A stretch of 20,468 nt of DNA, taken from Isosphaeraceae bacterium (GTDB lineage Bacteria; Planctomycetota; Planctomycetia; Isosphaerales; Isosphaeraceae). The position numbers and the translations under genes were made by a program. Of the stretch, positions 22 to 15,108 are shown piece after piece. The notes under the pieces are model-generated. The model saw only the letters and a program-made list of their open reading frames with translations. It was not told where the DNA came from and did no database searches. The stretch spans positions 1 to 20,468 of the forward strand of contig JBGSYY010000408.1 in assembly GCA_041750675.1 (NCBI GenBank). The letters are read 5' to 3'. Each line of letters starts with the position of its first letter. Within the stretch, counting starts at the first letter, position 1.

Positions 22-131
22 TCCCGGCGACCATACCGGCGGGGCCACACCCGTTCCCATCCCGAACACGGCCGTTAAGCCCGCCGGGCCTATGATAGTG
101 CCTCTGGCGCGAAAGTCGGTTATCGCCGGGT
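22..131 (+). rRNA. rrf: 5S ribosomal RNA
   Basis: Sequence cccggcgaccataccggcggggccacacccgttcccatcccgaacacggccgttaagcccgccgggcc...tcgccggg aligns along its length to bacterial 5S rRNA (E. coli rrf). Helix I closes with cccggcga/tcgccggg. The internal loop C/loop E region (ccgaacacgg...gtta) is conserved. It is followed directly by a terminator. Confidence 0.85.
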
Positions 132-288: not shown

Positions 289-1395
289 TCAGAGCAGGTT
301 CAGCACACGGTCGGCAAAGCCCTTCTCGCCCAGCACGACCTTCAGCTCACCGCTCATGGCGATCTTCTCCAGAACCTCCAGTTCACGCATCCGCATCAGT
401 GTGGGGTTCTCGGCCAGCAGTCGCGCCGTGTTGGCCTGGCTGCGCAGGGCAGCCGTCTCTTCCCGTCGCGTAACGAGGTTAGCTTCGGCGGCCTTCTTGG
501 CCTCCGTCACCTTGTTCATCAGGTCCTTCATATCGCCCGGCAGGATCAGGTCGCGGATTCCCAGCAAGGCAACCTCCAGCCCCAGGCCCGAGGCGCGGCT
601 TGCCAGAATCGCGGCCGCTTCGGCGGCCACGGCGTCCTTCTCCGAGAGCAGCATGTCCAGCTCGCGGCCGTTGACGACCGCGCGAAGGGCGAGCTGCGCC
701 TCGCGATACAGCGCCTGCTTGAAGTCTTCCGTCGCGCAGACGGCTCGACGCGCGTCGACTACCCGATACGTCGCAACGGCGTTCAGCCGCAGCGTCACCT
801 TATCGGCGCTCATCAAGTCCTGGCCCACAAGGTCGAGCGTTAACTCGCGTACATCCACTTCAACGACCCGAACGTCCGCCGCACCCTTCCAGAACGCCCA
901 CGGGCCTGGGTCGAGCGTCTCGATGTAACGGCCGTCCAGGAACAGCACACCCACGCAGCCGCGATTGACCGCGCCCAGCTCAAGCTGCTCGCGAGCCGTC
1001 GGGCTACGCAGGATCGTCTTCAGATCGGCGTGCTCAAAGCGTTCGCACTGGACAGCCACCACCTCAACACGCACGTCGCGGAAGTTCGTCCAGTAAACGT
1101 GCAGGCCCGGCCCCAGAATCCGCGCAAACCGGCGGTCGATCCAGACCAGCGCGCGCTGATCGTCGCGCAGGTCGACGACCTGCGCCAGACCCTTGAGCGC
1201 GCCCGACTTGACGATCATGTCAAGCTTCTCGTGAACGAGGAACGGCGCACGCTGATCGACAACAACCACGGCCAGATCATCGAACGGATCAAGGAACCGG
1301 TGAATGCCGGCCTCAAGTAAGCCCTGAAACACGCCGTCGCGGTGCAGAAGGCCGATCTCGGAATCGCGGATCTTGAATCGCTTGAAACAGAACAT
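289..1395 (-). CDS. slipin / SPFH (band 7, stomatin-prohibitin-flotillin-HflK/C) family protein
   Basis: 368-aa ORF. The central region has an SPFH-domain profile (…VVEVDVRELTLDLVGQDLMSADKVTLRLNAVATYRVVDARRAV…EAQLALRAVVNGRELDMLLSEKDAVAAEAAAILA…GLEVALLGIRDLILPGD…) followed by a C-terminal coiled-coil/Ala-Glu-rich tail typical of stomatin-like proteins. Codon bias matches the other genes here. Confidence 0.8.
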   Translation of the reverse strand: MFCFKRFKIRDSEIGLLHRDGVFQGLLEAGIHRFLDPFDDLAVVVVDQRAPFLVHEKLDMIVKSGALKGLAQVVDLRDDQRALVWIDRRFARILGPGLHVYWTNFRDVRVEVVAVQCERFEHADLKTILRSPTAREQLELGAVNRGCVGVLFLDGRYIETLDPGPWAFWKGAADVRVVEVDVRELTLDLVGQDLMSADKVTLRLNAVATYRVVDARRAVCATEDFKQALYREAQLALRAVVNGRELDMLLSEKDAVAAEAAAILASRASGLGLEVALLGIRDLILPGDMKDLMNKVTEAKKAAEANLVTRREETAALRSQANTARLLAENPTLMRMRELEVLEKIAMSGELKVVLGEKGFADRVLNLL

Positions 1396-1882
1396 GAAAC
1401 GGCCTCCTGGTTGAAATCTCCACCCTTTCTGAAAAGACGACTCGACGCAGGTGGATCGATCGGACGAGTCGGGAATGATGAGCTATCATCAACGAGAACG
1501 AAGCGGACAAAATCAGACCTTGGGAGACGGACGACCGTCGGCCACGCGTCAACGACGCGGAGCACCACATGAGCCATAGGCTCCAGAGCCGTCATCGCGG
1601 CGGACCGAAGACCACTCGGACGCGCGGGGCTTGTCCCGCACCAAACGCCCAAGGGCCGCCGGACTCAACGCGATTCATGCAATGGAACGAAGTGGATTCC
1701 GTGGGCTACAGGGCGTCGATTCGCGCTGAACGCGTGCGCCGGACCGCCACGGTGAGGTGCAACCCCCCTCGTAACGTCCCTCTCACGCGGACAGGCCAGC
1801 CGTTCGTCCGTCTCCTTCCAGTCATCAATGAGCGAGATGTGTGCACATCCCGTTGAAGGTCGGCCGAGGCCGACCAACGGCG

Positions 1883-1957
1883 TGTTGTGGGCGGGAGTCG
1901 AACCCGCGACACCCAGGTTAATAACCTGGTGCTCTATCCAATTGAGCTACCACGAAC
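1883..1957 (-). tRNA. tRNA-like gene with an anomalous anticodon loop (uuAUUaa, anticodon AUU) and a bulged acceptor stem; possibly a pseudo-tRNA
   Basis: The reverse complement shows a canonical D-arm (ta gctc aattggata gagc), anticodon stem ccagg/cctgg with the 7-nt loop ttattaa, variable region gtgtc, T-arm gcggg ttcgact cccgc, and 3' acceptor ccacaac + a. The 5' acceptor gttCgtgg needs one bulged C to pair. The anticodon AUU is not used by normal bacterial tRNAs. Confidence 0.45.
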
Positions 1958-2067
1958 CGACTCCGCCCCGGTTTTCATCCCCTTCACGGAACACGCCCCA
2001 CCGATCGCCAAAAGAGACGAGGCGAGCGCGCCGCGGGCCTGACGAAGCCAGCCGCTTGCTTGCAAAG

Positions 2068-2139
2068 AGACGCCGGTGGGAGTCGAACCCACTTCAGACC
2101 GGTTTGCAGCCGGCCGCCTGACCGTCTGGCTCCAGCGTC
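2068..2139 (-). tRNA. tRNA-Cys (GCA)
   Basis: Reverse complement gacgctg ga gcc agacggtca ggc g gccgg cuGCAaa ccggt ctgaa gtggg ttcgact cccac cggcgtc t. The 7-bp acceptor includes one G.U pair, the T-loop is TTCGA, and the discriminator is U73 as expected for Cys. Position 8 is G, which is atypical. Confidence 0.75.
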
Positions 2140-2157
2140 GTTTCGATCGAAAATCCA

Positions 2158-2228
2158 TGTCCCCGCCAGGAGTCGAACCTGGCCCTCGACCTTCGCAGGG
2201 TCGTGTGCATCCGACACACCTCGAGGAC
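2158..2228 (-). tRNA. tRNA-Arg (GCG)
   Basis: Reverse complement gtcctcg ag gtgt gtcggat gcac a cgacc cuGCGaa ggtcg aggg ccagg ttcgact cctgg cggggac a. The cloverleaf is complete and the discriminator is A73. The anticodon GCG, with G34 in the CGN box, is unusual for bacteria. Confidence 0.7.
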
Positions 2229-2252
2229 GTCGGCAAAACCAACCACCGTCAA

Positions 2253-2325
2253 TGCCCTCGCCAGGAATCGAACCTGGTCTACGGCGTTCGAAGCGCCGCG
2301 TGCGACTCCGGCACACTCCAAGGGC
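2253..2325 (-). tRNA. tRNA-Arg (UCG)
   Basis: Reverse complement gcccttg ga gtgt gccggagtc gcac g cggcg cuUCGaa cgccg taga ccagg ttcgatt cctgg cgagggc a. The D-stem gtgt/gcac is the same as in the neighbouring Arg gene. Confidence 0.7.
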
Positions 2326-2350
2326 GTTTCCTTCCATATAGAGGACTCAG

Positions 2351-2420
2351 CCGGGACGCGAGGATTCGAACCTCGTAGACGGGTTTTGGAGGCCCGCGGC
2401 TCTCCCAAGAGCACATCCCG
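2351..2420 (-). tRNA. tRNA-Trp (CCA)
   Basis: Reverse complement cgggatg t gctc ttggga gagc c gcggg(c) cuCCAaa (a)cccgt cta cgagg ttcgaat cctcg cgtcccg g. The anticodon loop cuCCAaa and discriminator G73 fit Trp. There is a C.A mismatch at positions 31-39 and the D-region is short. Confidence 0.65.
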
Positions 2421-2444
2421 AATCGTCATTGAGCTGTCAAAAGG

Positions 2445-2532
2445 CGGAGGGCGGGGGATTCGAACCCCCACGCCCGCGAACGGGCGCACTCGCTAGCAAC
2501 GAGGCCCGGCCAGCCGTATCCGGCTACCCTCC
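2445..2532 (-). tRNA. tRNA-Ser (GCU), type II with long variable arm
   Basis: 88 nt. Reverse complement ggagggt ag ccgg atacggctgg ccgg g cctcg uuGCUag cgagt gcgcccgttcgcgggcgt ggggg ttcgaat ccccc gccctcc g. It has a long variable stem-loop and G73. Confidence 0.8.
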
Positions 2533-2547
2533 GTAAGCGAACAGAAG

Positions 2548-2618
2548 TGGACCGCCGGGGAGTCGAACCCCGATTTCCGGGTTGCAAGACCGGTGTCTTT
2601 CCCTTGGACCAGCAGCCC
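2548..2618 (-). tRNA. tRNA-Ala (UGC)
   Basis: Reverse complement gggctgc tg gtcc aagggaaa gaca ccgg(t) cuUGCaa (c)ccgg aaat cgggg ttcgact ccccg gcggtcc a. The acceptor carries G3:U70, the Ala identity pair, and the discriminator is A73. Confidence 0.7.
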
Positions 2619-2652
2619 ATCGAACCAAAACCTCCAGCGCGAAAAAGGGGAG

Positions 2653-2725
2653 TCATCCCGGCAGGACTCGAACCTGCGATCTCCTGTTTGTAAGACAGGG
2701 GCCTTCGCCTCTAGACGACGGGACG
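2653..2725 (-). tRNA. tRNA-Val (UAC)
   Basis: Reverse complement cgtcccg tc gtct agaggcga aggc c cctgt cuUACaa acagg agat cgcagg ttcgagt cctgc cgggatg a. U8 and A73 are present. Confidence 0.8.
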
Positions 2726-2751
2726 AGTGAGGCAGCAGCAACAAGCGCGAA

Positions 2752-2819
2752 TCCCAGGCCCCGGTATCGATCCGGGCGGCCAGGCTCATGAGGCCCGGCG
2801 GAGCACCTGCTCGCCTGGA
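2752..2819 (-). tRNA. degenerate tRNA-like element with a CAU anticodon loop (Met/initiator-like remnant?)
   Basis: 68 nt: tccaggc|gagc aggt gctc|c|gccgggc cuCAUga gcctggc|cg|cccgg atcgata ccggg|gcctggg|a. The acceptor pairs well apart from U1.G72, and the anticodon stem is 7 bp. It lacks nucleotides 8-9, has a 2-nt variable region, and carries a non-canonical T-loop (ATCGATA). Confidence 0.35.
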
Positions 2820-2841
2820 GAGCAGCGAAGTGGTGAGAAAG

Positions 2842-2929
2842 TCGCCGGGGGGAGGGTCGAACTCCCACGCCCGCTGGTGTGGGCACGAGTTTCTGAGACT
2901 CGCGCGTCTGCCTGTTCCGCCACCCGGCG
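2842..2929 (-). tRNA. tRNA-Leu (CAG), type II
   Basis: 88 nt. Reverse complement cgccggg tg gcgg aacaggcagac gcg cgagt cuCAGaa actcg tgcccacaccagcgggcgt gggag ttcgacc ctccc cccggcg a. Strong similarity to canonical bacterial tRNA-Leu (tggcggaa…agacgcg), with A73. Confidence 0.85.
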
Positions 2930-2958
2930 ATCATTCGAGAACCAAGGCAAAAGTCGAG

Positions 2959-3033
2959 CGCCCCCGGTGGGATTTGAACCCACGGCCTTCTCCTCGACAG
3001 GGAGACGAGCACTCCGGACTGCTCCACGAGGGC
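2959..3033 (-). tRNA. tRNA-Asp (GUC)
   Basis: Reverse complement gccctcg tg gagc agtccggagt gctc g tctcc cuGUCga ggaga aggcc gtggg ttcaaat cccac cgggggc g. It has G73. Confidence 0.8.
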
Positions 3034-3059
3034 GACACACGGCTTCGGACACCAGACAG

Positions 3060-3143
3060 CGGAAGGAGAGGGAGTCGAACCCTCAAGGCTCATCGCTCGG
3101 TCGTTTTCGAAACGACTGCCGTCACCCATCGGCTTGCCCTTCC
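3060..3143 (-). tRNA. tRNA-Ser (CGA), type II
   Basis: 84 nt. Reverse complement ggaaggg ca agcc gatgggtgac ggc a gtcgt uuCGAaa acgac cgagcgatgagccttg aggg ttcgact ccctc tccttcc g. It has a long variable arm and G73. Confidence 0.75.
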
Positions 3144-3150
3144 CAGAAAG

Positions 3151-3225
3151 CTCCGGCGGCAGGAATCGAACCTGCGGCAACCCGGTTAACAGCCGGTCGC
3201 CCGTACCAGCACAAGCCCCGCCGGA
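3151..3225 (-). tRNA. tRNA-Asn (GUU)
   Basis: Reverse complement tccggcg gg gctt gtgctggta cggg c gaccgg cuGUUaa ccgggt tg ccgcagg→ T-arm gcagg ttcgatt cctgc cgccgga g. It has the classic cuGUUaa loop and G73. Confidence 0.7.
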
Positions 3226-3242
3226 AAAGCACAACGAAACAG

Positions 3243-3315
3243 TCGGGGCGGCCGGATTCGAACCGGCGGTCTCCTGCTCCCGAAGCAGGCGGATTTCCAG
3301 GCTCTCCCACACCCC
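3243..3315 (-). tRNA. tRNA-Pro (CGG)
   Basis: Reverse complement cggggtg tg ggag agcctggaa atcc g cctgc uuCGGga gcagg agac cgccgg→ T-arm gccgg ttcgaat ccggc cgccccg a. It has C1:G72 and A73, both Pro-typical, and an AGCCTGG D-loop. Confidence 0.8.
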
Positions 3316-3391
3316 GAATCCAATCGTGCTGATTGCTGGATGTTGAGACAAAATCGTCACCCGTGACTCACAATTCAGCAACCCCAAGAAA

Positions 3392-3463
3392 AGTGCCCAG
3401 CGGGATTCGAACCCGCGCTTCCGCCATGGCAAGGCGGCAGGCCAACCGCTACCTCATGGGCAC
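3392..3463 (-). tRNA. tRNA-Gly (GCC)
   Basis: Reverse complement gtgccca tg aggt agcggttgg cct g ccgcc uuGCCau ggcgg aagc gcggg ttcgaat cccgc tgggcac t. It has U73, which is Gly-typical. Confidence 0.8.
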
Positions 3464-3501
3464 TTTTGTGGATGCGACATATTGTCAAAGAATCGGACGA
3501 G

Positions 3502-3573
3502 AGCACCGGGCGGGCCTCGAACCCGCGTCTCCGCGTTACGAAAGCGGAATCCTGCCCATTGGACGACCAGTGC
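3502..3573 (-). tRNA. tRNA-Thr (CGU)
   Basis: Reverse complement gcactgg tc gtcc aatgggca ggat tccgc(t) uuCGUaa (c)gcgga gac gcggg ttcgagg cccgc ccggtgc t. There is a U.C mismatch at positions 31-39. Confidence 0.7.
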
Positions 3574-3597
3574 AACCATCTCGGTGAATCTTCCGAA

Positions 3598-3670
3598 TGG
3601 GACCCGAGGGACTCGAACCCTCACCACCCTGGTTAAGAGCCAGGTATGCTGCCGCTAGCACCTGAGTCCC
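3598..3670 (-). tRNA. tRNA-Lys (CUU)
   Basis: Reverse complement gggactc ag gtgc tagcggca gcat a cctgg cuCUUaa ccagg gtggt gaggg ttcgagt ccctc gggtccc a. It has A73. Position 8 is A. Confidence 0.75.
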
Positions 3671-3700
3671 CTTTCATCCGATCTCTGTCCTTCATGAAAG

Positions 3701-3772
3701 TCGGCCCGGGAGGAGTCGAACCTCCGCCTGGCGGTTATCGGCCGCCGGTTCTGCCGTTAAACCACAGGCCGG
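3701..3772 (-). tRNA. tRNA-Ile (GAU)
   Basis: Reverse complement cggcctg tg gttt aacggcag aacc ggcgg ccGAUaa ccgcc aggc ggagg ttcgact cctcc cgggccg a. It has A73. Position 33 is C. Confidence 0.7.
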
Positions 3773-3808
3773 ACGATCAAACGTCGGCGCGCAGCGGGAG
3801 CGCGGAAG

Positions 3809-3880
3809 TGGGTCGGGTGGCGCTCGAATCCACGTCTGCGGCTTTTCAGGCCGCCGCTAGACCATCTCAGCTACCGACCC
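3809..3880 (-). tRNA. tRNA-Phe (GAA)
   Basis: Reverse complement gggtcgg ta gct gagatggtct agc g gcggc cuGAAaa gccgc agac gtgga ttcgagc gccac ccgaccc a. It has A73. There is an A.G mismatch at positions 53-61. Confidence 0.7.
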
Positions 3881-4243
3881 GCGCGTCATTTCGATCAGAC
3901 AGGTAACAAGCACGGCCGGACGTCCCTTGGTAAAGACGCCCGGCCGTCCCGGGTCTCATCGAGATGTCCCGTGGAGGCGATTAGGCGTCAGGGTTCATCG
4001 CAAAACCCGCCGCGCACGCTGGTCGTCGATCCGCCGTAAAACTGGCGATCCGCCGTATCTGCCGTGGCTGGGTCCAACTCGCTCTCAGCGACGCCCACAT
4101 CACAACCTCCGTCTCTTCCTTCAAACCTTTGTCGATCCCCGCGAATGCTTCCCGGCCCGAGGTCTCACAGCCGGCACGCCCATGCAGACGCCGCCGCCTC
4201 TCAAGATGTTCGCGCGTTTCCGTGAATTTTTTGAAGCGTCCTC

Positions 4244-6802
4244 TCAGGGCTGACCGGCCGACGCGGGCTGGCCTGCCGGTACGGGTTCCAGCGCGACCTC
4301 AAACGCCTCATCCAGCATCTCGGGAAAGTGAAAACGAAGCTGCGAGCGAACTTCCTCCGGGATGTCCTCAATGTCGGCCTCGTTCGCCTTGGGCAAGATG
4401 ATCTCGGTGATCCCCGCTCGGTGCGCTCCCAGAACCTTCTCCTTCACGCCGCCAATCGGCAGAACCCGGCCGCGGAGCGTGATTTCCCCCGTCATCGCCA
4501 CATCTCGACGCACCGGCCGACCCGACATCGCCGATGCCAGCGCGGTCGCAATCGCCACGCCCGCCGATGGTCCGTCCTTGGGAATCGCCCCGGCCGGAAC
4601 ATGGATATGCACCTCAATCGATCCCAGCCGATCACGTGCAATTTTCAAGTCGCTGGCGTGAGTGGCGGCATACGTCAGCGCCGCGCGGGCCGATTCCTTC
4701 ATCACATCGCCGAGCTGCCCGGTCAGAATAAGGGCCACCTGTCCCCAGCCGGTCGCTTGCGTAATCGTCTCGGCCGTTGGCGGAGGGGGCAGGGGGGATT
4801 CCAGTCGGCGGATGGCCGCCTCGACGAACATGATGTCGCCGCCCGCCGGCGTGTAATACATCCCCGTTGCCACCCCAATCTCATTCACTTCACCGATCCG
4901 CTCAGGATGCACCCGTGGCCGACCCAGTAGCTCACGTACGTCGGCCGGCTCGATCCGCGCGTCCACCTTTTCGTCCGACGCAAGCTTCCGCGCCAGCTTC
5001 CGCGTGACCGCGCCGATCTGCCGCTCCAGTTGACGCACCCCCGCCTCGCGCGTGTACTGGCTCACGATCGTCATTACGGCGTCGTCGCTGAACACGATCT
5101 TGTGGTCCGATAGCCCTGCTTCCTCGACCTGTCGCGGTATCAAATACGACTTGGCGATCTCCGCCTTTTCCCGCTCCGTGTAACCGGCGAAATCAACCAC
5201 CTCCATGCGGTCGAGCAACGGCCCCGGAATGTTCTGCAGGAAATTCGCCGTGGCGATGAATAAGACCTCGCTCAAATCAAACGGTATGTTCAGATAGTGA
5301 TCCGTAAACGTATCGTTCTGTGCGGGATCAAGAACCTCAAGCAACGCGCTCGCCGGATCGCCCTGAAACGAGACCCCAAGCTTATCGACCTCGTCAAGCA
5401 GGAAGACCGGATTCTTCGTCCCCACTTGCTTCATTCCTTGGATGATCCGTCCCGGCATCGCCCCCACATAGGTCCGGCGGTGGCCTCGAATATCCGCTTC
5501 ATCGCGCACGCCACCTAAAGCCGCACGAACATACTTACGCCCCAACGAGCGAGCAATCGACTTCGCGATCGACGTTTTGCCCACACCCGGAGGACCCACG
5601 AACAGCAAAATCGGCCCCCGCGCCATGGCCCGCGCCTTCACCTCCGCCTGGTCGGTAATCATCTTTCCAGGTTCATTGTTCGAACCCTTCAGCGAGGGAT
5701 TCGCGGTGTCGCGCGTCGCCATCAGACGGTCAAGCGGGCACTCGCCATTGCGGTCCACCTCTTCCGCCAGTTGCCGGGCCCGAAGCTGCCGCACCGCCAG
5801 GAATTCCAGTATCCGGTCTTTTACGTCCTGCAGGCCGTAGTGGTCCTCATCCAGCACCTTCGCTGCGTGCCGCAGGTCGAGATTGTCGTCCGACCTCGCG
5901 TTCCAGGGCAGTTCGGCAATCCACTCCAGATACGTGCGGATGACCTGGGCCTCCATCGACTCCCGCCCCGCTCGCTCCAGCCGCGCCAGCTCACGCTCGA
6001 CCTCGACCCGGGCCTCGCTCGGCAGCTCCAGCTTGGTCAATTTCTCCCGCAACGCCACGATCTCACGATTCTGGTCGTCCTCCCCCAGCTCCTTCTGGAT
6101 CGCCTTCAACTGCTCGCGCAAAAACATCTCTCGCTGACGCTGGCCCAGCTCTTCCTGCACTTGCGACTTAATCTCCTCCTGCGCGACGAGCATACCGATC
6201 TTTCGCTGAACCTGGACCAGCACCCGACGCAGCCGCTCCTCGACTCCGAGCGTCTCCAGCAGTACCTGCTTCTCATCCACCGGCAGCTCGATATACCCCG
6301 CCACGAGATCCGCGAATGGACCCGGCTCGACGACCGAATCCATCACGTTGTGCAGCACCTCCTCCGGCATATCCCGCAGTTGACCCAGATCCATCGCACG
6401 CTCGCGTGTTTCGCGATACAGCGCCGCGAAGGCGGCGTCCGCTTCATCCGCGGGCGGAATCTCGGCCACCGGGCTGACGTCTGCTCGCAAATACCCCTCG
6501 CTACTGTTGTACTGTGCGGCCGTCGCCCGCGCCTCACCCTGCAGCAGAAGCTGGACGCCGCCCAGCCCACGCTGAATCTGCCCGATCCTCGCGATGACGC
6601 CCATCCCATAAAGCTGGTCCGGGGTCGGCTCCTCGGCCGTGTCACGCTGCGCAACGGCGAAGATCAGGCCATTCCCCTTCTTGACCGCCGCCTCGATCGC
6701 CCTCAACGTCCCAGGCCGTCCCACACCGATCGGTGAGGTCACTCCCGGAAAAATCACCGAACCACGCAGCGGCAAAACCGGGAGCGTTTGTTGCTCAAAC
6801 AT
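4244..6802 (-). CDS. lon: ATP-dependent Lon protease (endopeptidase La)
   Basis: 852-aa ORF with the Lon N-terminal domain ([42 protein letters not shown]…), an AAA+ module with Walker A ([15 protein letters not shown]) and Walker B (LLDEVDK), and a C-terminal protease domain with the catalytic Ser motif ([19 protein letters not shown]). Confidence 0.95.
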
Positions 6803-7044
6803 CGCGTCGTCTCTCCGATCAGCGATCCCAGCACCCGCCGCCCGAGCGTTCCGCGCGCGGTGAAGCGATCAGACCTAGAATTGTCTCTCCTTCTATCCGT
6901 ATTCCACGGCAGCCGAAAAGTCCAGCACGCAACCCGCCTCAACCCATGCTCTCTCATCGCCTGCACACTCATTCTCCCCTCACGCGTGAACTGCCGGATC
7001 GGATAACATCTGAAAGTCCCGCACGCCTTCTCGAGGCCATCCGT

Positions 7045-8478
7045 ATGCCGTTCTCGATAACCGCAGGACTTATCCTCGCCTTCTGCCTTGCAGCCGACGG
7101 AGGCACTCCCTCCTTCCACGCCGGAGCTTCGGCCGTCGAGATCACACCACCCGTCGGCTGGCGTCTCGCCGGCAGTTTCCAGGACGAGCCGAGTTCCCGC
7201 GTCCGCGATCCTCTCCACGCTCGTGCGCTGGTTCTCCAGCAGGGCGAGCAACGCATGGCCCTTGTCATCTGCGACCTGACTGGCCTACCCCGCGAAGTCG
7301 CCCATCGCGCGCGACGTCTTGCCTCCCAACGCACGGGCATTCCCGCCGATCAAATCGTCATCGCCGCGACCCACACCCACGGCGCACCGCTCTTCTACGA
7401 TCACCGCCGCGAGCGATTCCACATACAAAACCTCAAGCAACATGGTCGTGATCCTGCCGAGCCGACACTCGACTACGCCGCCTTGCTCGTCGACCGCTGC
7501 GCCGAGGCCGTCGTCCTCGCCCAACGTACCGCAGCCCCCGCACGAATCCGATCCGGATCGATCGACGTCCCCGGCCTCGCCTTCAACCGGCGCTTCAAGA
7601 TGCGCGACGGCTCGGTGCGCTTCAACCCCGGCAAGCTCAACCCCGAGATCGTCGAGCCTGTGGGTCCCGTCGATCCCACCCTGCGCGTCGTTCGCTTCGA
7701 CCATCTCGCCGACGATCGGCCCATCGCCGCCCTCAACGTCTTCGCCATCCACGTCGCCGTCCACGGAGGTCCCGAAATTTCCGCGGATTTTCCTGCCGTG
7801 ATCGAAAAACGCCTCCAAGCCCGGTTCGGCCCCAACTTCGTCGCCCTCTTCGGCGAGGGAACCGCCGGCGACGTCAATCATATCGACGTCCAATCCGCCT
7901 CCCTCCAGCCCCCCGAAACCGAGCCAGCCCGGATCGGCAACGCCTTGGCAGAGGCCTGGCTGGCCCTGGAACCGAATCTCCACACCGCCGACAGCCCTTC
8001 GCTGGCCGTCCGCTCCGCTACGATCCAAGCCCCTCTCCGCCCCGCAAGCCCCGACGATGGTCGTCGTGCCCGGCACATCCTCGATCAGGAGAACCCGCCC
8101 GCCGAGTTCCTCGAGATTGTCGAGGCGCACCGAATTCTCGATGTCCTCGACGCCCGTCGCATCCATGGCGAAACCCTACCGATGGACGTCACGACGGTTC
8201 GGCTCGACGACTCCACGGCCCTCGTCTGTTTACCACACGAAATCTTCGTCGACTTGGGCCAGGCAATCGCCCGCGAGTCCCCCTTCCCGAACACGCTCGT
8301 CATCACCCTCTGCAACGGTGTCGACTTCTACGTCCCCACCGCCCATGCGTACGCGGAGGGTGGCTACGAGGTTGTCAACTCGCGAGTCGAGCGGGGTGCC
8401 GGCGAGGCACTTGTGGAAGCTGCCCTCACACAACTCCGCGCCCTGGCGGCGAGTCGTCCGTCAGGACCAGGCGGTTGA
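7045..8478 (+). CDS. secreted hydrolase, neutral/alkaline ceramidase-like N-terminal domain family (putative)
   Basis: The ORF runs to the stop at 8478. The ATG at 7045 gives an N-terminal signal-peptide-like segment, MPFSITAGLILAFCLAADGG. The extension upstream to 6733 overlaps the lon start on the opposite strand and is Pro/Arg-rich junk. Motifs VEITPPVGWRLAG and AATHTHGAP resemble the neutral-ceramidase-like hydrolase family. The assignment comes from motif memory only. Confidence 0.5.
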   Translation: MPFSITAGLILAFCLAADGGTPSFHAGASAVEITPPVGWRLAGSFQDEPSSRVRDPLHARALVLQQGEQRMALVICDLTGLPREVAHRARRLASQRTGIPADQIVIAATHTHGAPLFYDHRRERFHIQNLKQHGRDPAEPTLDYAALLVDRCAEAVVLAQRTAAPARIRSGSIDVPGLAFNRRFKMRDGSVRFNPGKLNPEIVEPVGPVDPTLRVVRFDHLADDRPIAALNVFAIHVAVHGGPEISADFPAVIEKRLQARFGPNFVALFGEGTAGDVNHIDVQSASLQPPETEPARIGNALAEAWLALEPNLHTADSPSLAVRSATIQAPLRPASPDDGRRARHILDQENPPAEFLEIVEAHRILDVLDARRIHGETLPMDVTTVRLDDSTALVCLPHEIFVDLGQAIARESPFPNTLVITLCNGVDFYVPTAHAYAEGGYEVVNSRVERGAGEALVEAALTQLRALAASRPSGPGG

Positions 8479-8544
8479 AAGTCACTCCCGGCTAGGCCAT
8501 GCATTGACGTTTCGATGGGTCGTCCATGATCGGCGTTCTCACCC

Positions 8545-8760
8545 GTCATCCCCGCGCAGAAATGCGTTGATCCAGCCGGCCTCGATCGATCATAGAGGCT
8601 CAGTTTGTCCGGTTCCGTTGGTGTCATCCCCGCGCAGGCGGTGATCCAGAGGTCAACGAACTGACCGACAAAGCCGTCCCGACTGAAGTCATCCCCGCGC
8701 AGGCGGGGATCCAGAGTGTTCGCCGCTCTCTCGCCGGATCACCGCCTGCGCGGGGATGAC
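8545..8760. repeat. Cluster of 29-bp palindromic repeats matching the type I-E CRISPR repeat consensus; degenerate mini-array or REP-like, with no cas genes in the window
   Basis: Two near-identical direct copies: 8623-8651 gtcatccccgcgcaggcggTgatccagag and 8688-8716 gtcatccccgcgcaggcggggatccagag, separated by a 36-bp unique spacer. One degenerate direct copy lies upstream at 8545-8575 (the first 15 nt and the gatccag tail are conserved). One inverted degenerate copy lies at 8736-8760. The repeat has an internal 8-bp stem, atccccgc/gcggggat, and fits the I-E-like consensus GTnnTCCCCGCnnnnGCGGGGATnnnnnn. Confidence 0.5.
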
Positions 8761-9818: not shown

Positions 9819-11735
9819 ATGCACACCGTATCAGAACCGGCCCCCCGCATTGCGCCGGCGTCCCCGCCGATCCCCGGACGCCCCGATCTCATCGCAGGCT
9901 TCCTCGTCTTCTTGATCGCGTTGCCCCTCTGCCTGGGGATCGCCCTGGCCAGCGGCTACCCCGCGGTGGCAGGCATCCTCGCCGCCGTGGTCGGCGGCCT
10001 CCTCACACCCTGGATCAGCGATTCGGCGTTGACAATCAAGGGTCCCGCGGCAGGGCTGATCGTCATCGCCCTCGGGGCCATCAACGAATTCTCAGCGATC
10101 TATGGGCCTGACCGCGCCTATCCACTCGCTCTGGGCGTCGGCGTGGCTGCGGGATTGATCCAGATCCTGTTCGGGCTGAGTAAGTCCGGAAAGCTCGGCG
10201 AATTCTTCCCCACGACCGTCGTTCATGGAATGCTCGCCGCAATCGGCGTCATCATCATGGCCAAGCAGATTCATGTGACGCTCGGCGTCATGGATACCCA
10301 CGGCGAACCGCTGGAACTCATCCGGGAAATCCCCAACTCGATCGCGCGGCTCAATCCCGAGATCGCCCTGATCGGTGGGATCAGCCTGCTGATCCTGTTT
10401 GTCATGCCCATGATAAAACACCCGCTGATCAGAAAAATTCCATCCCCACTCGTCGTCATCCTGGTCGCCGTGCCGATGGGACTCTACTTCGGCCTCACCG
10501 AGGAGCATACCTACTCCTTCGGTGGACACGACTACTCGCTCGGGGAACGCTTCCTCGTGCCCGTGCCGCAAAACCTCCTCAAGGCGATCACCTTCCCGGA
10601 TTTCTCAGGACTTCGCACCCTCGTCGCCTGGAAATGGGTGGCGCTGTTCGCGCTGATCGGATCGCTCGAGTCCATCCTCAGCGCCAAGGCGATTGACCTG
10701 ATGGACCCGTGGCAGCGAAAGACGAACCTCAATCGTGATCTCATCGCGATCGGTATCGGCAACACCGTTGCGGCCGGCATCGGCGGTTTTCCCATGATCT
10801 CCGAAATCGTGCGCAGCAAGGCCGCCGTCGACAATGGAGCGCGCACCCGGTTCACCAACCTCTTCCACGGCTTGTTCTTGCTCGGCTTCGTCGCACTCGT
10901 CCCAGGCCTGCTCCACCGTATCCCGCTCGCCGCCCTTAGTGCCATGCTTGTCTACACGGGCGCTCGGCTGGCCTCGCCACGCGAGTTCCAAAACGTCTCG
11001 CGCATTGGCAAAGAGCAATTGCTCATCTTTGTCATCACCCTGGTCGGAGTTCTCGCGACCGACCTCCTGGTCGGAGTCGGCATCGGCATCGCTGCCAAGC
11101 TGGCGATTCACGTCCTCAACGGCGTGCCGATCCTCTCCCTCTTCCGGCCCTACCTCGACATCGAGCCCCTCGATGACAACACCTCGCTGATTCGCGCTCG
11201 CCGATCGGCGGTCTTCAGCAACTGGATCCCATTCAAGAGTCAGATCGAGCAGATCGGACTGGTCCAGCATACGAACCTGGTGATCGACCTCTCCGAGGCA
11301 AAATTCGTCGACCATCATGTCATGGAAAAGCTGCACGAGCTTCAGGTCGATTTCGAGAACCAGGGCCTCTCGCTCGAACTCGTCGGCCTCGAGACGCACA
11401 AGAAACTCTCCAGCCACGAACACGCCGCACGACGCCAAGGCTACGATCGGTCACGCAGGATCACCGTGATCATCGATGCAGCCGCGGGCGGGCCGCTCTG
11501 CGAGGAACTCGTCGCCCAGGGTGCCGACCGCTACACCCTCACGCCCTGCCTCGCCGTCGGCGGGACCGTCGAAAACGGCTCCTTACCTTCCTCCAACGGA
11601 GTCCAGTGGGTCCGGTGCGAGATCCACGTCCCCACCGCAAACGTCGATCCCGTCATGAGGCGAGTCCGCCGCGCGCTCCGTGAGGATCGCGTCCACAGCG
11701 TCTCGGCCGAGACAATCGAACGCATCGAAAGCTGA
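9819..11735 (+). CDS. SulP-family inorganic anion (sulfate/bicarbonate) transporter with STAS domain and a C-terminal PII-like domain
   Basis: 638 aa. There are multiple TM helices with SulP/SLC26 signatures (…GFPMISEIVRSKAAVDNGARTRFTNLFHGLFLLGFVAL…). A STAS domain follows (…TNLVIDLSEAKFVDHHVMEKLHELQVDFENQGLSLELVGLETHKK). The last 92 aa or so (nt 11457-11735) show a beta-alpha-beta-beta-alpha-beta pattern like GlnB/PII proteins: ITVIIDAA…LCEELVAQGA…YTLTPCLAVGG…VQWVRCEIHVP…VDPVMRRVRRAL…VHSVSAETIERIES. Confidence 0.85.
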   Translation: MHTVSEPAPRIAPASPPIPGRPDLIAGFLVFLIALPLCLGIALASGYPAVAGILAAVVGGLLTPWISDSALTIKGPAAGLIVIALGAINEFSAIYGPDRAYPLALGVGVAAGLIQILFGLSKSGKLGEFFPTTVVHGMLAAIGVIIMAKQIHVTLGVMDTHGEPLELIREIPNSIARLNPEIALIGGISLLILFVMPMIKHPLIRKIPSPLVVILVAVPMGLYFGLTEEHTYSFGGHDYSLGERFLVPVPQNLLKAITFPDFSGLRTLVAWKWVALFALIGSLESILSAKAIDLMDPWQRKTNLNRDLIAIGIGNTVAAGIGGFPMISEIVRSKAAVDNGARTRFTNLFHGLFLLGFVALVPGLLHRIPLAALSAMLVYTGARLASPREFQNVSRIGKEQLLIFVITLVGVLATDLLVGVGIGIAAKLAIHVLNGVPILSLFRPYLDIEPLDDNTSLIRARRSAVFSNWIPFKSQIEQIGLVQHTNLVIDLSEAKFVDHHVMEKLHELQVDFENQGLSLELVGLETHKKLSSHEHAARRQGYDRSRRITVIIDAAAGGPLCEELVAQGADRYTLTPCLAVGGTVENGSLPSSNGVQWVRCEIHVPTANVDPVMRRVRRALREDRVHSVSAETIERIES

Positions 11736-14952: not shown

Positions 14953-15108
14953 CATTGCCCGGTTATCGATCGCAGACAAGTCTCCCTGCCTGCCGCCGCC
15001 CGGAAGGCAGCAATCCACTCCCAGGAACCGAAGCACGAACGCGCGCCGTTTCCCTGTTCCGGATCGCACTCTCGACACGCGCTCAGTTTTCCCCAGCCCG
15101 GGCCCAAA

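Follow-up and report, generated by a model that had tools for sequence, protein, structure and literature searches.

Long arrays of accessory transfer RNA (tRNA) genes, their horizontal spread, their carriage by phages and the presence of Planctomycetes among their carriers are already known; in published surveys this phylum is one of those in which long arrays occur rarely, and a horizontal transfer of the arrays is advocated there (PMC4758250, PMC8421152). The present work deals with an array of 19 tRNA and tRNA-like genes, together with its leader and its tail, on the minus strand of a 20,468-nucleotide stretch of DNA from an Isosphaeraceae bacterium (contig JBGSYY010000408.1). This whole stretch is called the window, and the loci compared with it carry numbers with the prefix L.

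The L-array (trn operon) of Anabaena sp. PCC 7120 and the other cyanobacterial arrays (Puerto-Galan and Vioque 2012; PMC8421152) resemble the window array in being long, non-periodic and confined to a single strand, in holding about one gene per isoacceptor, in keeping their order across carriers, in their patchy distribution and in having been proposed as a spare set. The Anabaena array is silent and is induced by translational stress, a control attributed to direct repeats in the promoter (PMC8421152), and such an induction is the behaviour that the leader attenuator proposed below would give. The window family differs from the cyanobacterial arrays by a leader open reading frame (ORF) with putative terminator and antiterminator, by its sharing with tailed phages, by a structured tail RNA and by its host phylum. 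In Mycobacterium, one array type is common to chromosomes, prophages and phages (PMC5966550); there, the types G1-G5 (Morgado and Vicente 2018, PMC5966550) are likewise set by isotype order and found in chromosomes, prophages and free phages, and their GC content near that of the host, their tRNAs mostly unlike those of the host and the non-coding RNAs inside them were also likened to the window. Their order and sequences differ from those of the window array, inside which no HNH endonuclease or other ORF is found, and no leader attenuator is described for the mycobacterial arrays. The array of Acidithiobacillus ferrooxidans and A. ferrivorans (Tran et al. 2016, PMC4758250) is comparable as a supernumerary, Gram-negative array, syntenic in its two carriers although the flanks are not, and subject to gene loss and translocation. 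It is borne by an integrative and conjugative element, whereas phages are the only mobile carriers seen here, and the 19 genes of the window stand below the 20-gene threshold of that study. When the whole array was compared by blastn with the PLSDB plasmids (the Anabaena array being on a plasmid-type replicon) and the INPHARED phages, only single tRNAs were matched (Ser-CGA, Pro-CGG, Ala and the terminal gene), so that no link was found to the described cyanobacterial or mycobacterial arrays.

The tRNA clusters of lytic phages (T4, T5 and others) reportedly replace tRNAs cut by host defence nucleases. Relatives of the window array are also phage-borne, and some chromosomal relatives adjoin Schlafen-like (L114), Hen1 (L108) or Ro60 (L129) genes, whereas the window copy is chromosomal with no phage or defence genes adjoining. 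The leader resembles known attenuators (trp, his, pheST; ermC, mef/mel) by its short ORF preceded by a Shine-Dalgarno (SD) sequence, by predicted, mutually exclusive antiterminator and terminator-like helices and by a proposed antiterminator strand that sits where a terminating ribosome would cover it. It differs from them in that tRNAs would be controlled in place of enzymes or resistance genes, in its scattered rare codons and Arg doublets instead of a run of a single regulatory codon, and in a terminator-like hairpin that has no U-run in the window. No paper linking a tRNA array with a leader-peptide attenuator was found in the literature searched.

The evidence presented here leads us to propose, with a probability of roughly 0.7, that positions 1833-4216 of the minus strand form a single cassette derived by reduction from a tRNA array of the L-array kind with conserved gene order; that chromosomes bearing planctomycete-type genes and tailed phages, some of them temperate, exchange arrays of this family; and that the cassette, of phage origin, would have been kept and trimmed by the host as a backup set of tRNAs available on demand. 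None of the leader, the structured tail RNA and the link with phages figured in the initial annotation. What appears to be new is a planctomycete and phage array family with conserved ends, namely a putative leader attenuator on one side and a structured tail RNA with a tRNA-like element on the other, and with a tRNA(CAU) having a mini D-arm.

Composition of the array

With default settings, ARAGORN located 18 tRNA genes between 1882 and 3880, all on the minus strand, and the CAU gene was added by its -ps90 setting, in agreement with the 19 minus-strand cloverleaf genes and the anticodons listed in the initial annotation of the window (Table 1). The total is made of 18 standard genes and one non-canonical tRNA(CAU). 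The gene density across 1882-3880 is 9.0 tRNA genes/kb, compared with a criterion of at least 2 tRNA genes/kb in Tran et al. 2016, and the array has the further characters of an L-array, a single strand, non-periodicity and a patchy distribution with horizontal spread. The published search criteria miss any array with fewer than 20 genes, so that small arrays of this kind may be under-counted.

The spacers measured from ARAGORN coordinates are of 6-36 nt, except two of 74 nt (3317-3390) and 110 nt (1957-2066), and each anticodon is present once, as first described. The two Arg paralogues are 76% identical and the other repeats correspond to generic T-arm similarity. With all genes on the minus strand and spacers of 6-110 nt, the members are close enough for one operon, in the order Phe-Ile-Lys(CUU)-Thr(CGU)-Gly-Pro-Asn-Ser(CGA)-Asp-Leu(CAG)-tRNA(CAU)-Val-Ala-Ser(GCU)-Trp-Arg(UCG)-Arg(GCG)-Cys, the terminal tRNA-like gene lying beyond Cys.

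Thirteen array genes were detected above the gathering score of the Rfam model RF00005. Leu-CAG and Arg-GCG were added by a run based on E-value, Arg-UCG was slightly under the cut-off, both Ser genes matched the tRNA-Sec model only and tRNA-Trp(CCA) gave no Rfam match. All the identity elements and discriminator bases claimed for the array were recognized in the ARAGORN cloverleaf drawings: Ala has G3:U70 and Pro has C1:G72, while the discriminator base is U73 for Cys and Gly and G73 for Asp, Asn(GUU), Trp and both Ser. A 3' CCA is encoded by none of the 19 genes, so that CCA addition would be needed after processing. Two further tRNAs proposed by relaxed ARAGORN at 8691-8758 and 14955-15035 were dismissed, both being within coding regions. 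As a side observation, CT (CTT, CTC or CTG) directly follows the discriminator base in 12/19 genes and may be a common 3'-processing signal.

Collinear arrays in metagenomes and phages

The Arg anticodon GCG is unusual in bacteria, ACG being the norm. The anticodon arm of Arg(GCG) was used as first probe, and a slightly longer version of it was scanned against metagenomes. The 52 loci recovered were all tRNA arrays (52/52), with 597 tRNAs in all. Their common order is Phe...Lys-Gly-Pro-Asn-Ser...Leu-Met-Val-Ala-Ser...Trp-Arg-Arg-Cys and their size across the family goes from 18 to 34 genes. The 34 genes of L114 begin with Phe-Glu-Ile-Lys-Ile(UAU)-Lys(CUU)-Gly-Pro-Asn-Ser(CGA)-Gly-Gln-Gln-Leu-Asp-Leu-Tyr-Glu-Leu(CAG) and continue with Leu-Leu-Pro-Ala-Ser(GCU)-Arg-Val-Ser-His-Trp-Thr-Arg-Arg-Arg(GCG)-Cys; in other family copies Met(CAU) follows Leu(CAG). 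The window array is collinear with the family but reduced, the genes for Glu, Gln, His and Tyr and many second isoacceptors being absent. As the genes of these four amino acids have been lost, the corresponding tRNAs must be encoded elsewhere.

The window genes share 72-96% identity with homologues at corresponding positions of other arrays, which excludes a chance origin of the cloverleaves. Together with the ARAGORN and Rfam results, these collinear homologues uphold the view that the genes are real tRNAs. The nearest array is L108, which has the subtype order Lys(CUU)-Thr(CGU)-Gly-Pro-Asn in common with the window; Thr(CGU) is placed after Lys-CUU in L108, L147, L148 and L149 as well. The first gene, tRNA-Phe(GAA), is 86-90% identical to gene 1 of L141, L101, L114, L147 and L149, and tRNA-Cys(GCA) is 95% identical to that of L100 and 92% to those of the phage contigs L089 and L143. 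Anticodons switch among orthologues: Pro occurs as CGG/UGG at 89% identity, Val as UAC/CAC and Ala as UGC/CGC/GGC, and the nearest homologue of tRNA-Ile(GAU) is Ile(UAU) of L114 and L101 (76%). The genomes carrying the cassette have a GC content of 53-70%.

The Arg(GCG) probe also matched viral contigs carrying tRNA clusters. In the viral contig L089, the order Trp...Arg(UCG)-Arg(GCG)-Cys is that of the window, with identities of 89-92% for Cys and 84% for Arg-GCG. L089, L126 and L143 represent one phage type (95-99.9% identical), in which a large serine recombinase, a ParB-methylase and both terminase subunits (S and L) adjoin the Cys end of the array. A second probe, taken from the Phe gene, revealed three further viral contigs, L147, L148 and L149, with 25, 32 and 18 array genes, respectively. 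The family order is kept in these contigs, including the window subtype Lys-Thr-Gly-Pro-Asn-Ser, at 73-90% identity to window genes, and in L148 tape-measure and tail-fibre genes stand immediately upstream of the array. Cys 18-mer matches in the viral contigs L091 and L092 were attributed to chance, no tRNAs being found there.

The fate of the locus in related genomes was followed through the neighbouring lon gene. The window Lon is 85% identical to that of the Isosphaeraceae metagenome-assembled genome (MAG) L001 and 75-79% identical to those of other planctomycetes. Synteny with L001 exists upstream of lon only (Mur ligase and a small ORF), with nothing shared downstream, and neither locus annotation nor an ARAGORN run showed a tRNA in any of 80 related lon loci (0/80). 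The similarity of Lon and Mur ligase points to an Isosphaeraceae planctomycete as the probable source of the window. By these comparisons, the array side of lon is a lineage-specific breakpoint. Because the array is absent at the 80 lon loci and has collinear copies in unrelated contexts and in phage contigs, it looks accessory and horizontally acquired, as the initial annotation had suggested. From the relatives without array at the locus, the variable membership with loss of four amino acids and the conserved non-canonical traits described below, we infer that the array would be a spare set, redundant with the housekeeping tRNAs.

Differently ordered clusters, often of lower GC content and with the same Arg(GCG) arm, were also observed (L095/L085, L110/L081, L104, L112, L113, L124, L138, L139 and L142). 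L095/L085 is a 266-kb contig of a putative jumbo phage with four consecutive Arg tRNAs, L110/L081 measures 59.8 kb, and some of these differently ordered clusters hold Arg-ACG and Arg-GCG together.

Leader of the array

Eight arrays include the 5' end (window, L108, L141, L114, L101, L147, L148 and L149) and in seven of them the leader ORF is complete. A stable, terminator-like hairpin precedes tRNA-Phe in 8/8 of these arrays, despite differing flanking genes, and the fold of the window leader has a z value of -4.0. The hairpin is followed by a run of 5-6 T in six relatives (L141, L114, L101, L147, L148 and L149). In L141, L114, L101 and L147 this run ends 3-4 nt ahead of tRNA-Phe, an arrangement shaped like an intrinsic terminator and without room for a promoter between hairpin and tRNA-Phe.

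Upstream of the hairpin, the leader ORF counts 32-44 codons from its ATG in 7/7 complete leaders and its stop lies 37-57 nt before the hairpin motif. The SD sequence is GGAGG, GGAG or GAGG in the window, L114 and L108, and GAAGAG in L141; it was strict in 3/4 of the leaders first examined. The combination of SD and a 25-45-codon ORF at that stop was obtained, per locus, in 0.6-1.5% of simple shuffles and in 2-5% of context-preserving shuffles. In L108, L141, L114, L101, L147 and L149, the stop codon is the TGA within a conserved box, TGTGACGC; L148 has GGTAACAC as its box, with TAA for stop codon. Clear similarity exists between the L114, L147 and L149 peptides (...EQI...GQP.NTLPV[YH]PLRL), and the leader C-terminus [YFH]P[LK]RL is kept via synonymous codons, Arg being encoded by CGT, AGA or CGC. 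The window leader contains codons that are rare in eight window genes, AGA (1/297 Arg) and ATA (4/224 Ile), and a tandem CGA-CGA.

The box at the end of the ORF and the hairpin 5' arm are reverse-complementary to one another. In folds without the hairpin 3' arm, the box paired with the 5' arm in 4/5 leaders folded; for L114, the truncated fold was uninformative and the full-length minimum-energy fold had the box-arm pairing. The energies of the box-arm duplexes are between -14 and -26 kcal/mol in all eight leaders. This pairing is maintained by matched changes: GUGACGC:GCGUCAC is found in L114, L101 and L141, GUGACAC:GUGUCAC in L149 and GUAACAC:GUGUUAC in L148, with a G.U intermediate in L147. 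The change of GUGAC to GUAAC, matched by that of GUCAC to GUUAC, converts TGA into TAA and so preserves the stop codon. In the hand-registered antiterminator core (8 rows), 94% of cells are paired and 2/8 pairs are changed on both sides. The covariation score was reached in 3/500 shuffles, and slid controls paired at 18-56%.

A leader-hairpin pattern derived from GGGCGTCA gave no match in viral contigs; the phage hairpin copies have a covarying GGTGTCAC or GGTGTTAC version and were recovered through the Phe probe. As the window upstream region gave no blastn match with the other arrays, the leader is conserved in layout and not in sequence. These features suggest a regulatory role for the leader, which we infer to have the layout of a trp-type ribosome-mediated attenuator. 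A terminator scan found none on the minus strand. Farther upstream, a 34-nt box is identical at 27/34 positions between the window and L108 (blastn E=3e-4 in a tiny search space) and stands at similar distances from the ATG (83 nt and 79 nt, respectively); a promoter, an operator or another regulatory site may be located there.

Selection and non-canonical traits of the tRNA genes

Compensatory (both-sided) pairs number 4-13 per tRNA orthologue set, and the window copies have 0-1 stem mismatch. Compared with the nearest homologue, 15 window genes show 62 stem substitutions; among the affected pairs, 22 are kept by both-sided and 12 by one-sided changes, and 5 are broken. Because the stem changes are mostly compensatory, the array cloverleaves are judged to be under purifying selection.

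U8 and the use of Arg-ACG belong to the usual features of bacterial tRNAs: the absence of U8 and the use of Arg-GCG or Ile-UAU are atypical of primary bacterial tRNAs, and Arg-GCG and Ile-UAU would allow codon reading without the TadA and TilS anticodon modifications. In the window, another base takes the place of U8 in Cys, Lys, Asn-GUU, both Arg and both Ser. These replacements extend to the family, with G8 in Cys (22/23) and Arg (40-48/51, and 48/51 for the Arg-UCG family), A8 in Lys (5/7) and Ser-GCU (14/14), and C8 in Ser-CGA (11/11 family members). C1:G72 in Leu and in Val is found in the window and in one other copy per family; in Trp it is found in the window alone, the relatives having A1:U72. 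The RF00005 scores are 27-59 bits in the window and 29-66 in relatives, compared with 53-75 for 11 E. coli tRNAs, a small baseline from a single species; the array family scores are about 12 bits under it. The initial annotation had called the non-canonical features of several members unusual. The features are indeed present; on this comparison, they are best read as family traits rather than decay.

The gene with anticodon CAU (2752-2819) illustrates this point. It has a 7-bp acceptor stem (U1.G72), a 5-6-bp anticodon stem, a 5-bp T stem with the T-loop AUCGAUA, and a mini D-arm in which a stem of 4 bp closes a 4-nt loop, AGGU, without G18G19. It is 82% identical over 56 nt to Met(CAU) of L109, and the same architecture is found at the equivalent array position in L109 (3746-3817) and L108 (8434-8503), with compensatory changes at acceptor pairs 2:71 and 4:69 and in the T stem. 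Comparison of these copies indicates that tRNA(CAU) is a real, non-canonical array member; its interpretation as a dead Met remnant was rejected, the identical odd build being present in L108 and L109. In other arrays, a CAU version of 77-78 nt was observed, with U1:A72 and an initiator-tRNA-like acceptor stem (UGCGGAG...CUCCGCA-A). Another variant was seen in L107 at 3389-3462 (minus strand), where a Cys-like tRNA with anticodon UCA, labelled SeC by ARAGORN, occupies the Cys(GCA) position; an anticodon switch could have given rise to an opal-suppressor variant there.

Tail of the array

Downstream of Cys, a 110-nt element predicted to be a structured RNA precedes the terminal tRNA-like gene. 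It is 80% identical to its counterpart in L108 (7466-7575) and recognisable in L137 (392-500), L144 (3225-3334) and L100. Among four sequences, its 34 pairs are 92% paired with 9 both-sided changes; 0/500 shuffles reached the observed score, slid controls gave 0-2, and no Rfam match was found for it. Enzymes of tRNA processing could cut the element out as a small RNA.

The terminal gene (1882-1956) has intact D, anticodon and T arms and two acceptor mismatches, U1.C72 and C3.A70. Its homologues in L108 (7391-7465, anticodon GUU) and L137 (318-391, anticodon UUA, of ochre-suppressor type) have mispaired acceptor stems too, so that the mispairing is a family trait. The gene is probably not an ordinary decoder, and one idea is that it acts as an RNase P handle releasing the 110-nt RNA. 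The two GC-rich hairpins directly after the last gene (fold z = -4.2; 0/200 shuffles equally stable) would be the probable end of the transcription unit, and L108 and L137 have a hairpin at the equivalent place.

Proposed mechanism

In the proposed mechanism, a promoter ahead of the 39-codon leader ORF would give rise to a single precursor for the whole cassette, and the end of this ORF overlaps the UGACGCC box able to pair with the 5' arm of the terminator-like hairpin. With a ribosome at the stop codon, the box would be hidden, the hairpin would form and transcription would stop or pause, leaving the array off. If the ribosome were stalled earlier or absent, the box would be free, the antiterminator would form and the array would be transcribed. 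The stall could be caused by translational stress, by tRNA shortage or cleavage, or by the rare codons. The precursor would then be cut by RNase P and 3' processing enzymes before CCA addition, and the products would act as spare decoders for about 55% of host codons, some of them without need for anticodon editing (Arg-GCG in place of ACG in the window, Ile-UAU in relatives).

A tentative extension, which we regard as possible without giving it even odds, describes the family as a mobile, self-regulating 'emergency tRNA supply'. A stalling-sensing switch would gate 18-34 tRNAs, the stalling being brought about, for example, by depletion of the host tRNAs, by their cleavage through defence nucleases or by poisons of translation; the 110-nt RNA would be released between tRNA and tRNA-like handle by tRNA-processing enzymes; and the arrays would serve in phage counter-defence, the planctomycete copies being domesticated and trimmed versions.

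Little is known about the use and timing of long accessory arrays, and the only functional study found is that of the Anabaena array. The leader element provides a concrete candidate for their control, conserved in phage and chromosomal copies. If the proposal is true, the supply of spare tRNAs would be coupled directly to the state of translation in the cell or the phage, and tRNA arrays would be tied to tRNA-cutting defence systems and phage counter-measures. The family is also a source of natural unusual tRNAs: the mini-D-arm CAU, non-U8 tRNAs, Arg-GCG, Ile-UAU and copies with UCA or UUA anticodons.

Alternative explanations

Several observations weigh against a phage-derived backup set under the control of a leader switch. 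Pfam analysis of the 20 window ORFs gave no phage or mobility genes, convincing flanking direct repeats were not found around the array, and the GC content is the same in array and flanks, which is uninformative on origin. The 'viral' label of some of the uncultivated viral genomes (UViGs) is an IMG/VR prediction, phage genes being confirmed for L089, L143 and L148 only. In the leader, the T-run after the hairpin is degenerate in the window (GUGCUUGUUACC) and in L108, where the hairpin may not be an intrinsic terminator; the window ORF stops at a TAA just past the box, the TGA of which is out of frame; the window peptide is barely similar to the others; a scan for sigma-70 promoters returned 0 sites; and the covariation of the core amounts to 2 pairs in 8 related, hand-registered sequences, the pair count being reached in 32/500 shuffles. 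The sole candidate for a target-site duplication was a 19-nt direct repeat of 79% identity (1785-1803 / 4261-4279), judged to be due to chance.

Some of these points would suit an ordinary housekeeping tRNA operon, vertically inherited or built up in place, which would hold main isoacceptor copies and from which phages would have taken theirs. It would fit the neighbourhood of lon, SPFH and the 5S end of the rRNA operon without mobility genes, the GC content shared with the flanks and the cloverleaves, which are all intact and under selection; moreover, 18 genes would be a large share if the genome had a total of 47-53 tRNA genes, as in some Isosphaeraceae (PMC5352709). However, the array is absent downstream of lon in 80/80 related loci, including the closest one, collinear arrays occur in many unrelated contexts and in phages, and the membership varies from 18 to 34 genes with Glu, Gln, His and Tyr encoded elsewhere. 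Arg-GCG, Ile-UAU and the non-U8 Cys, Arg, Lys and Ser also speak against such an operon, and a terminator-like hairpin before the first gene would be odd if expression were constitutive, so that we hold this explanation to be quite improbable. At the other extreme, the array could be the decaying, functionless relic of a prophage-borne array, tRNA genes having been lost stepwise. The 18-19 genes left of up to 34, the AUU anticodon and two acceptor mismatches of the terminal gene, the lost U-run of the window hairpin and the scores of Trp and Arg-UCG below the Rfam cut-off go in this direction, yet the stems retain 0-1 mismatches despite 4-25% divergence from the nearest homologues, with 22 both-sided and 12 wobble-compatible changes against 5 broken pairs. 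As the window retains an intact leader ORF, box and hairpin and the mispairing of the terminal gene, found in L108 and L137 too, is a family trait, decay appears very improbable, even more so than a housekeeping operon.

The initial annotation had also supposed an array tuned to GC-ending codons, and an explanation by codon usage, with C34 and G34 decoders serving G/C-ending codons independently of stress or phages, was weighed. In eight window genes, GC3 is 0.79 and the C34-read codons CTG, AAG, ACG, CCG and TCG rank first or second in their families; in addition, Lys-CUU, Leu-CAG and Thr-CGU have been kept where the U34 partners of relatives were lost. On the other hand, the array is unable to read CTC, ACC, GTC and GCC, the top codons of Leu, Thr, Val and Ala, or CCC, the second of Pro, and its 17 standard genes cover 55% of the codons of these genes. 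Val-UAC and Ala-UGC have been kept, anticodons switch freely, the same cassette is found at 53-70% genome GC, and the share of U34 anticodons, 3/18 here and 11/34 in L114, differs little. Tuning is thus weakly supported, and we consider it improbable as the explanation of the array. A last alternative, concerning the leader alone, deserves more weight although we still find it rather unlikely: the hairpin would be an insulator or terminator of upstream transcription, or a 5' stabiliser, with an incidental ORF and no switch. At 60-69% GC, DNA often contains open frames of 30-40 codons, the peptides of the window and of L141 are not clearly similar to the rest, and the unlocated promoter, the out-of-frame TGA and missing U-run of the window and the two covarying pairs are compatible with it. 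Against it stand the ORF of the same length class that ends 37-57 nt before the hairpin motif in 7/7 complete leaders, the strict SD in 3/4 leaders first examined, with 0.6-5% of shuffles per locus, and the synonymous C-terminal Arg codons (CGT, AGA, CGC) with the alike peptides of L114, L147 and L149. The box-hairpin complementarity kept by G:C to A:U changes, one of which turns TGA into TAA, and the U-run abutting tRNA-Phe in relatives, with no promoter room, likewise favour a switch.

Genomic context

The array lies between lon and the SPFH (slipin) gene, opposite the end of an rRNA operon, as first described, and the three neighbours were located in the window (Table 1). Among the 20 window ORFs, Pfam recognized Lon, SPFH, a ceramidase-like protein, SulP, Mur ligase and similar proteins. 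The genes beside the related arrays vary between loci (Table 1).

Table 1. Coordinates of the cassette features and of genes beside it or beside related arrays (window positions, unless a locus is named)
Feature	Position	Strand	Evidence and remarks
34-nt box	4183..4216	-	CGCGCGAACATCT.G..AGG..G..GCGTCTGCA; also in L108 at 10163-10196
Leader ORF, 39 codons, MWASLRASWTQPRQIRRIASFTADRRPACAAGFAMNPDA	3981..4100	-	GGAGG at 4106-4110, 5 nt before ATG; TAA at 3981-3983
TGACGCC box at leader ORF end	3984..3990	-	complementary to GGCGTC of hairpin 5' arm; proposed antiterminator strand
Leader hairpin, 13-bp stem ACGGCCGGGCGTC / GACGTCCGGCCGT	3912..3947	-	31 nt before tRNA-Phe
tRNA-Phe(GAA), array gene 1	3808..3880	-	ARAGORN; Rfam 57.4 bits
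tRNA-Ile(GAU), C1:G72	3700..3771	-	ARAGORN; Rfam 56.4 bits
tRNA-Lys(CUU), A8	3598..3670	-	ARAGORN; Rfam 51.2 bits; 93% identity to L101
tRNA-Thr(CGU)	3501..3573	-	ARAGORN; Rfam 49.8 bits; 84% identity to L147
tRNA-Gly(GCC)	3391..3464 (Rfam 3392-3463)	-	ARAGORN; Rfam 59.3 bits; 89% identity to L108
tRNA-Pro(CGG)	3242..3316	-	ARAGORN; Rfam 58.8 bits; 89% identity to Pro(UGG) of L108
tRNA-Asn(GUU)	3150..3225	-	ARAGORN; Rfam 30.9 bits; 88% identity to L108
tRNA-Ser(CGA), class II, C8	3059..3143	-	ARAGORN; 92% identity to L114 and L099
tRNA-Asp(GUC)	2958..3033	-	ARAGORN; Rfam 59.1 bits; 13 compensatory pairs in family
tRNA-Leu(CAG), class II, C1:G72	2841..2929	-	ARAGORN; Rfam 46.8 bits
tRNA(CAU), non-canonical, 68 nt	2752..2819	-	ARAGORN -ps90 only; no Rfam match
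tRNA-Val(UAC), C1:G72	2652..2725	-	ARAGORN; Rfam 57.5 bits; 89% identity to L108
tRNA-Ala(UGC), G3:U70	2547..2618	-	ARAGORN; Rfam 51.1 bits; 88% identity to L097
tRNA-Ser(GCU), class II, A8	2443..2532	-	ARAGORN; 89% identity to L105
tRNA-Trp(CCA), G73	2350..2420	-	ARAGORN; no Rfam match; 10 compensatory pairs in family
tRNA-Arg(UCG), G8	2253..2325	-	ARAGORN; Rfam 26.7 bits; 88% identity to L100
tRNA-Arg(GCG)	2158..2228	-	ARAGORN; Rfam 45 bits; 96% identity to L105
tRNA-Cys(GCA), G8 and U73, last standard gene	2067..2139	-	ARAGORN; Rfam 49 bits
110-nt structured RNA element	1957..2066	-	long irregular hairpin between Cys and terminal tRNA-like gene
Terminal tRNA-like gene, anticodon AUU	1882..1956	-	ARAGORN; Rfam 55.9 bits
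Two GC-rich hairpins	1858-1875, 1833-1852	-	directly after last gene
5S rRNA	23-131	+	79 bits
SPFH/Band-7 gene	289-1395	-	
Lon	4244-6802	-	
L105, L116, L132 array neighbours			planctomycete-type PSCyt/PSD proteins
L101 array neighbours			DUF1501 and DUF1800
L109, L129 array neighbours			WD40 proteins
L121 array neighbour			Ser/Thr kinase
L108 array neighbour, Hen1 RNA-repair methyltransferase	1880-3568	-	E = 1e-111
L108 array neighbour, AAA_21 ATPase			
L114 array neighbour, Schlafen AlbA_2 protein	4236-5357	+	
L129 array neighbour, Ro60/TROVE protein	6885-8501	-	directly after array

Genes for tRNA damage, tRNA repair or RNA quality control adjoin three related arrays (L108, L114 and L129). 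No Y RNA was found at the Rfam gathering score beside the Ro60 gene of L129, and tRNA was the sole Rfam family found in nine related loci. Concerning lon, after the few planctomycete hits (75-85%), the window protein is closest to those of dozens of Gemmatimonadaceae MAGs (71-78%, loci L005-L080). Such closeness is unexpected across phyla and may reflect a transfer of lon or mis-binned contigs. The ceramidase-like ORF (6733-8478, plus strand) and the oppositely oriented lon share about 70 nt at the 5' end of lon; the start codon of one or the other was probably called too far upstream.

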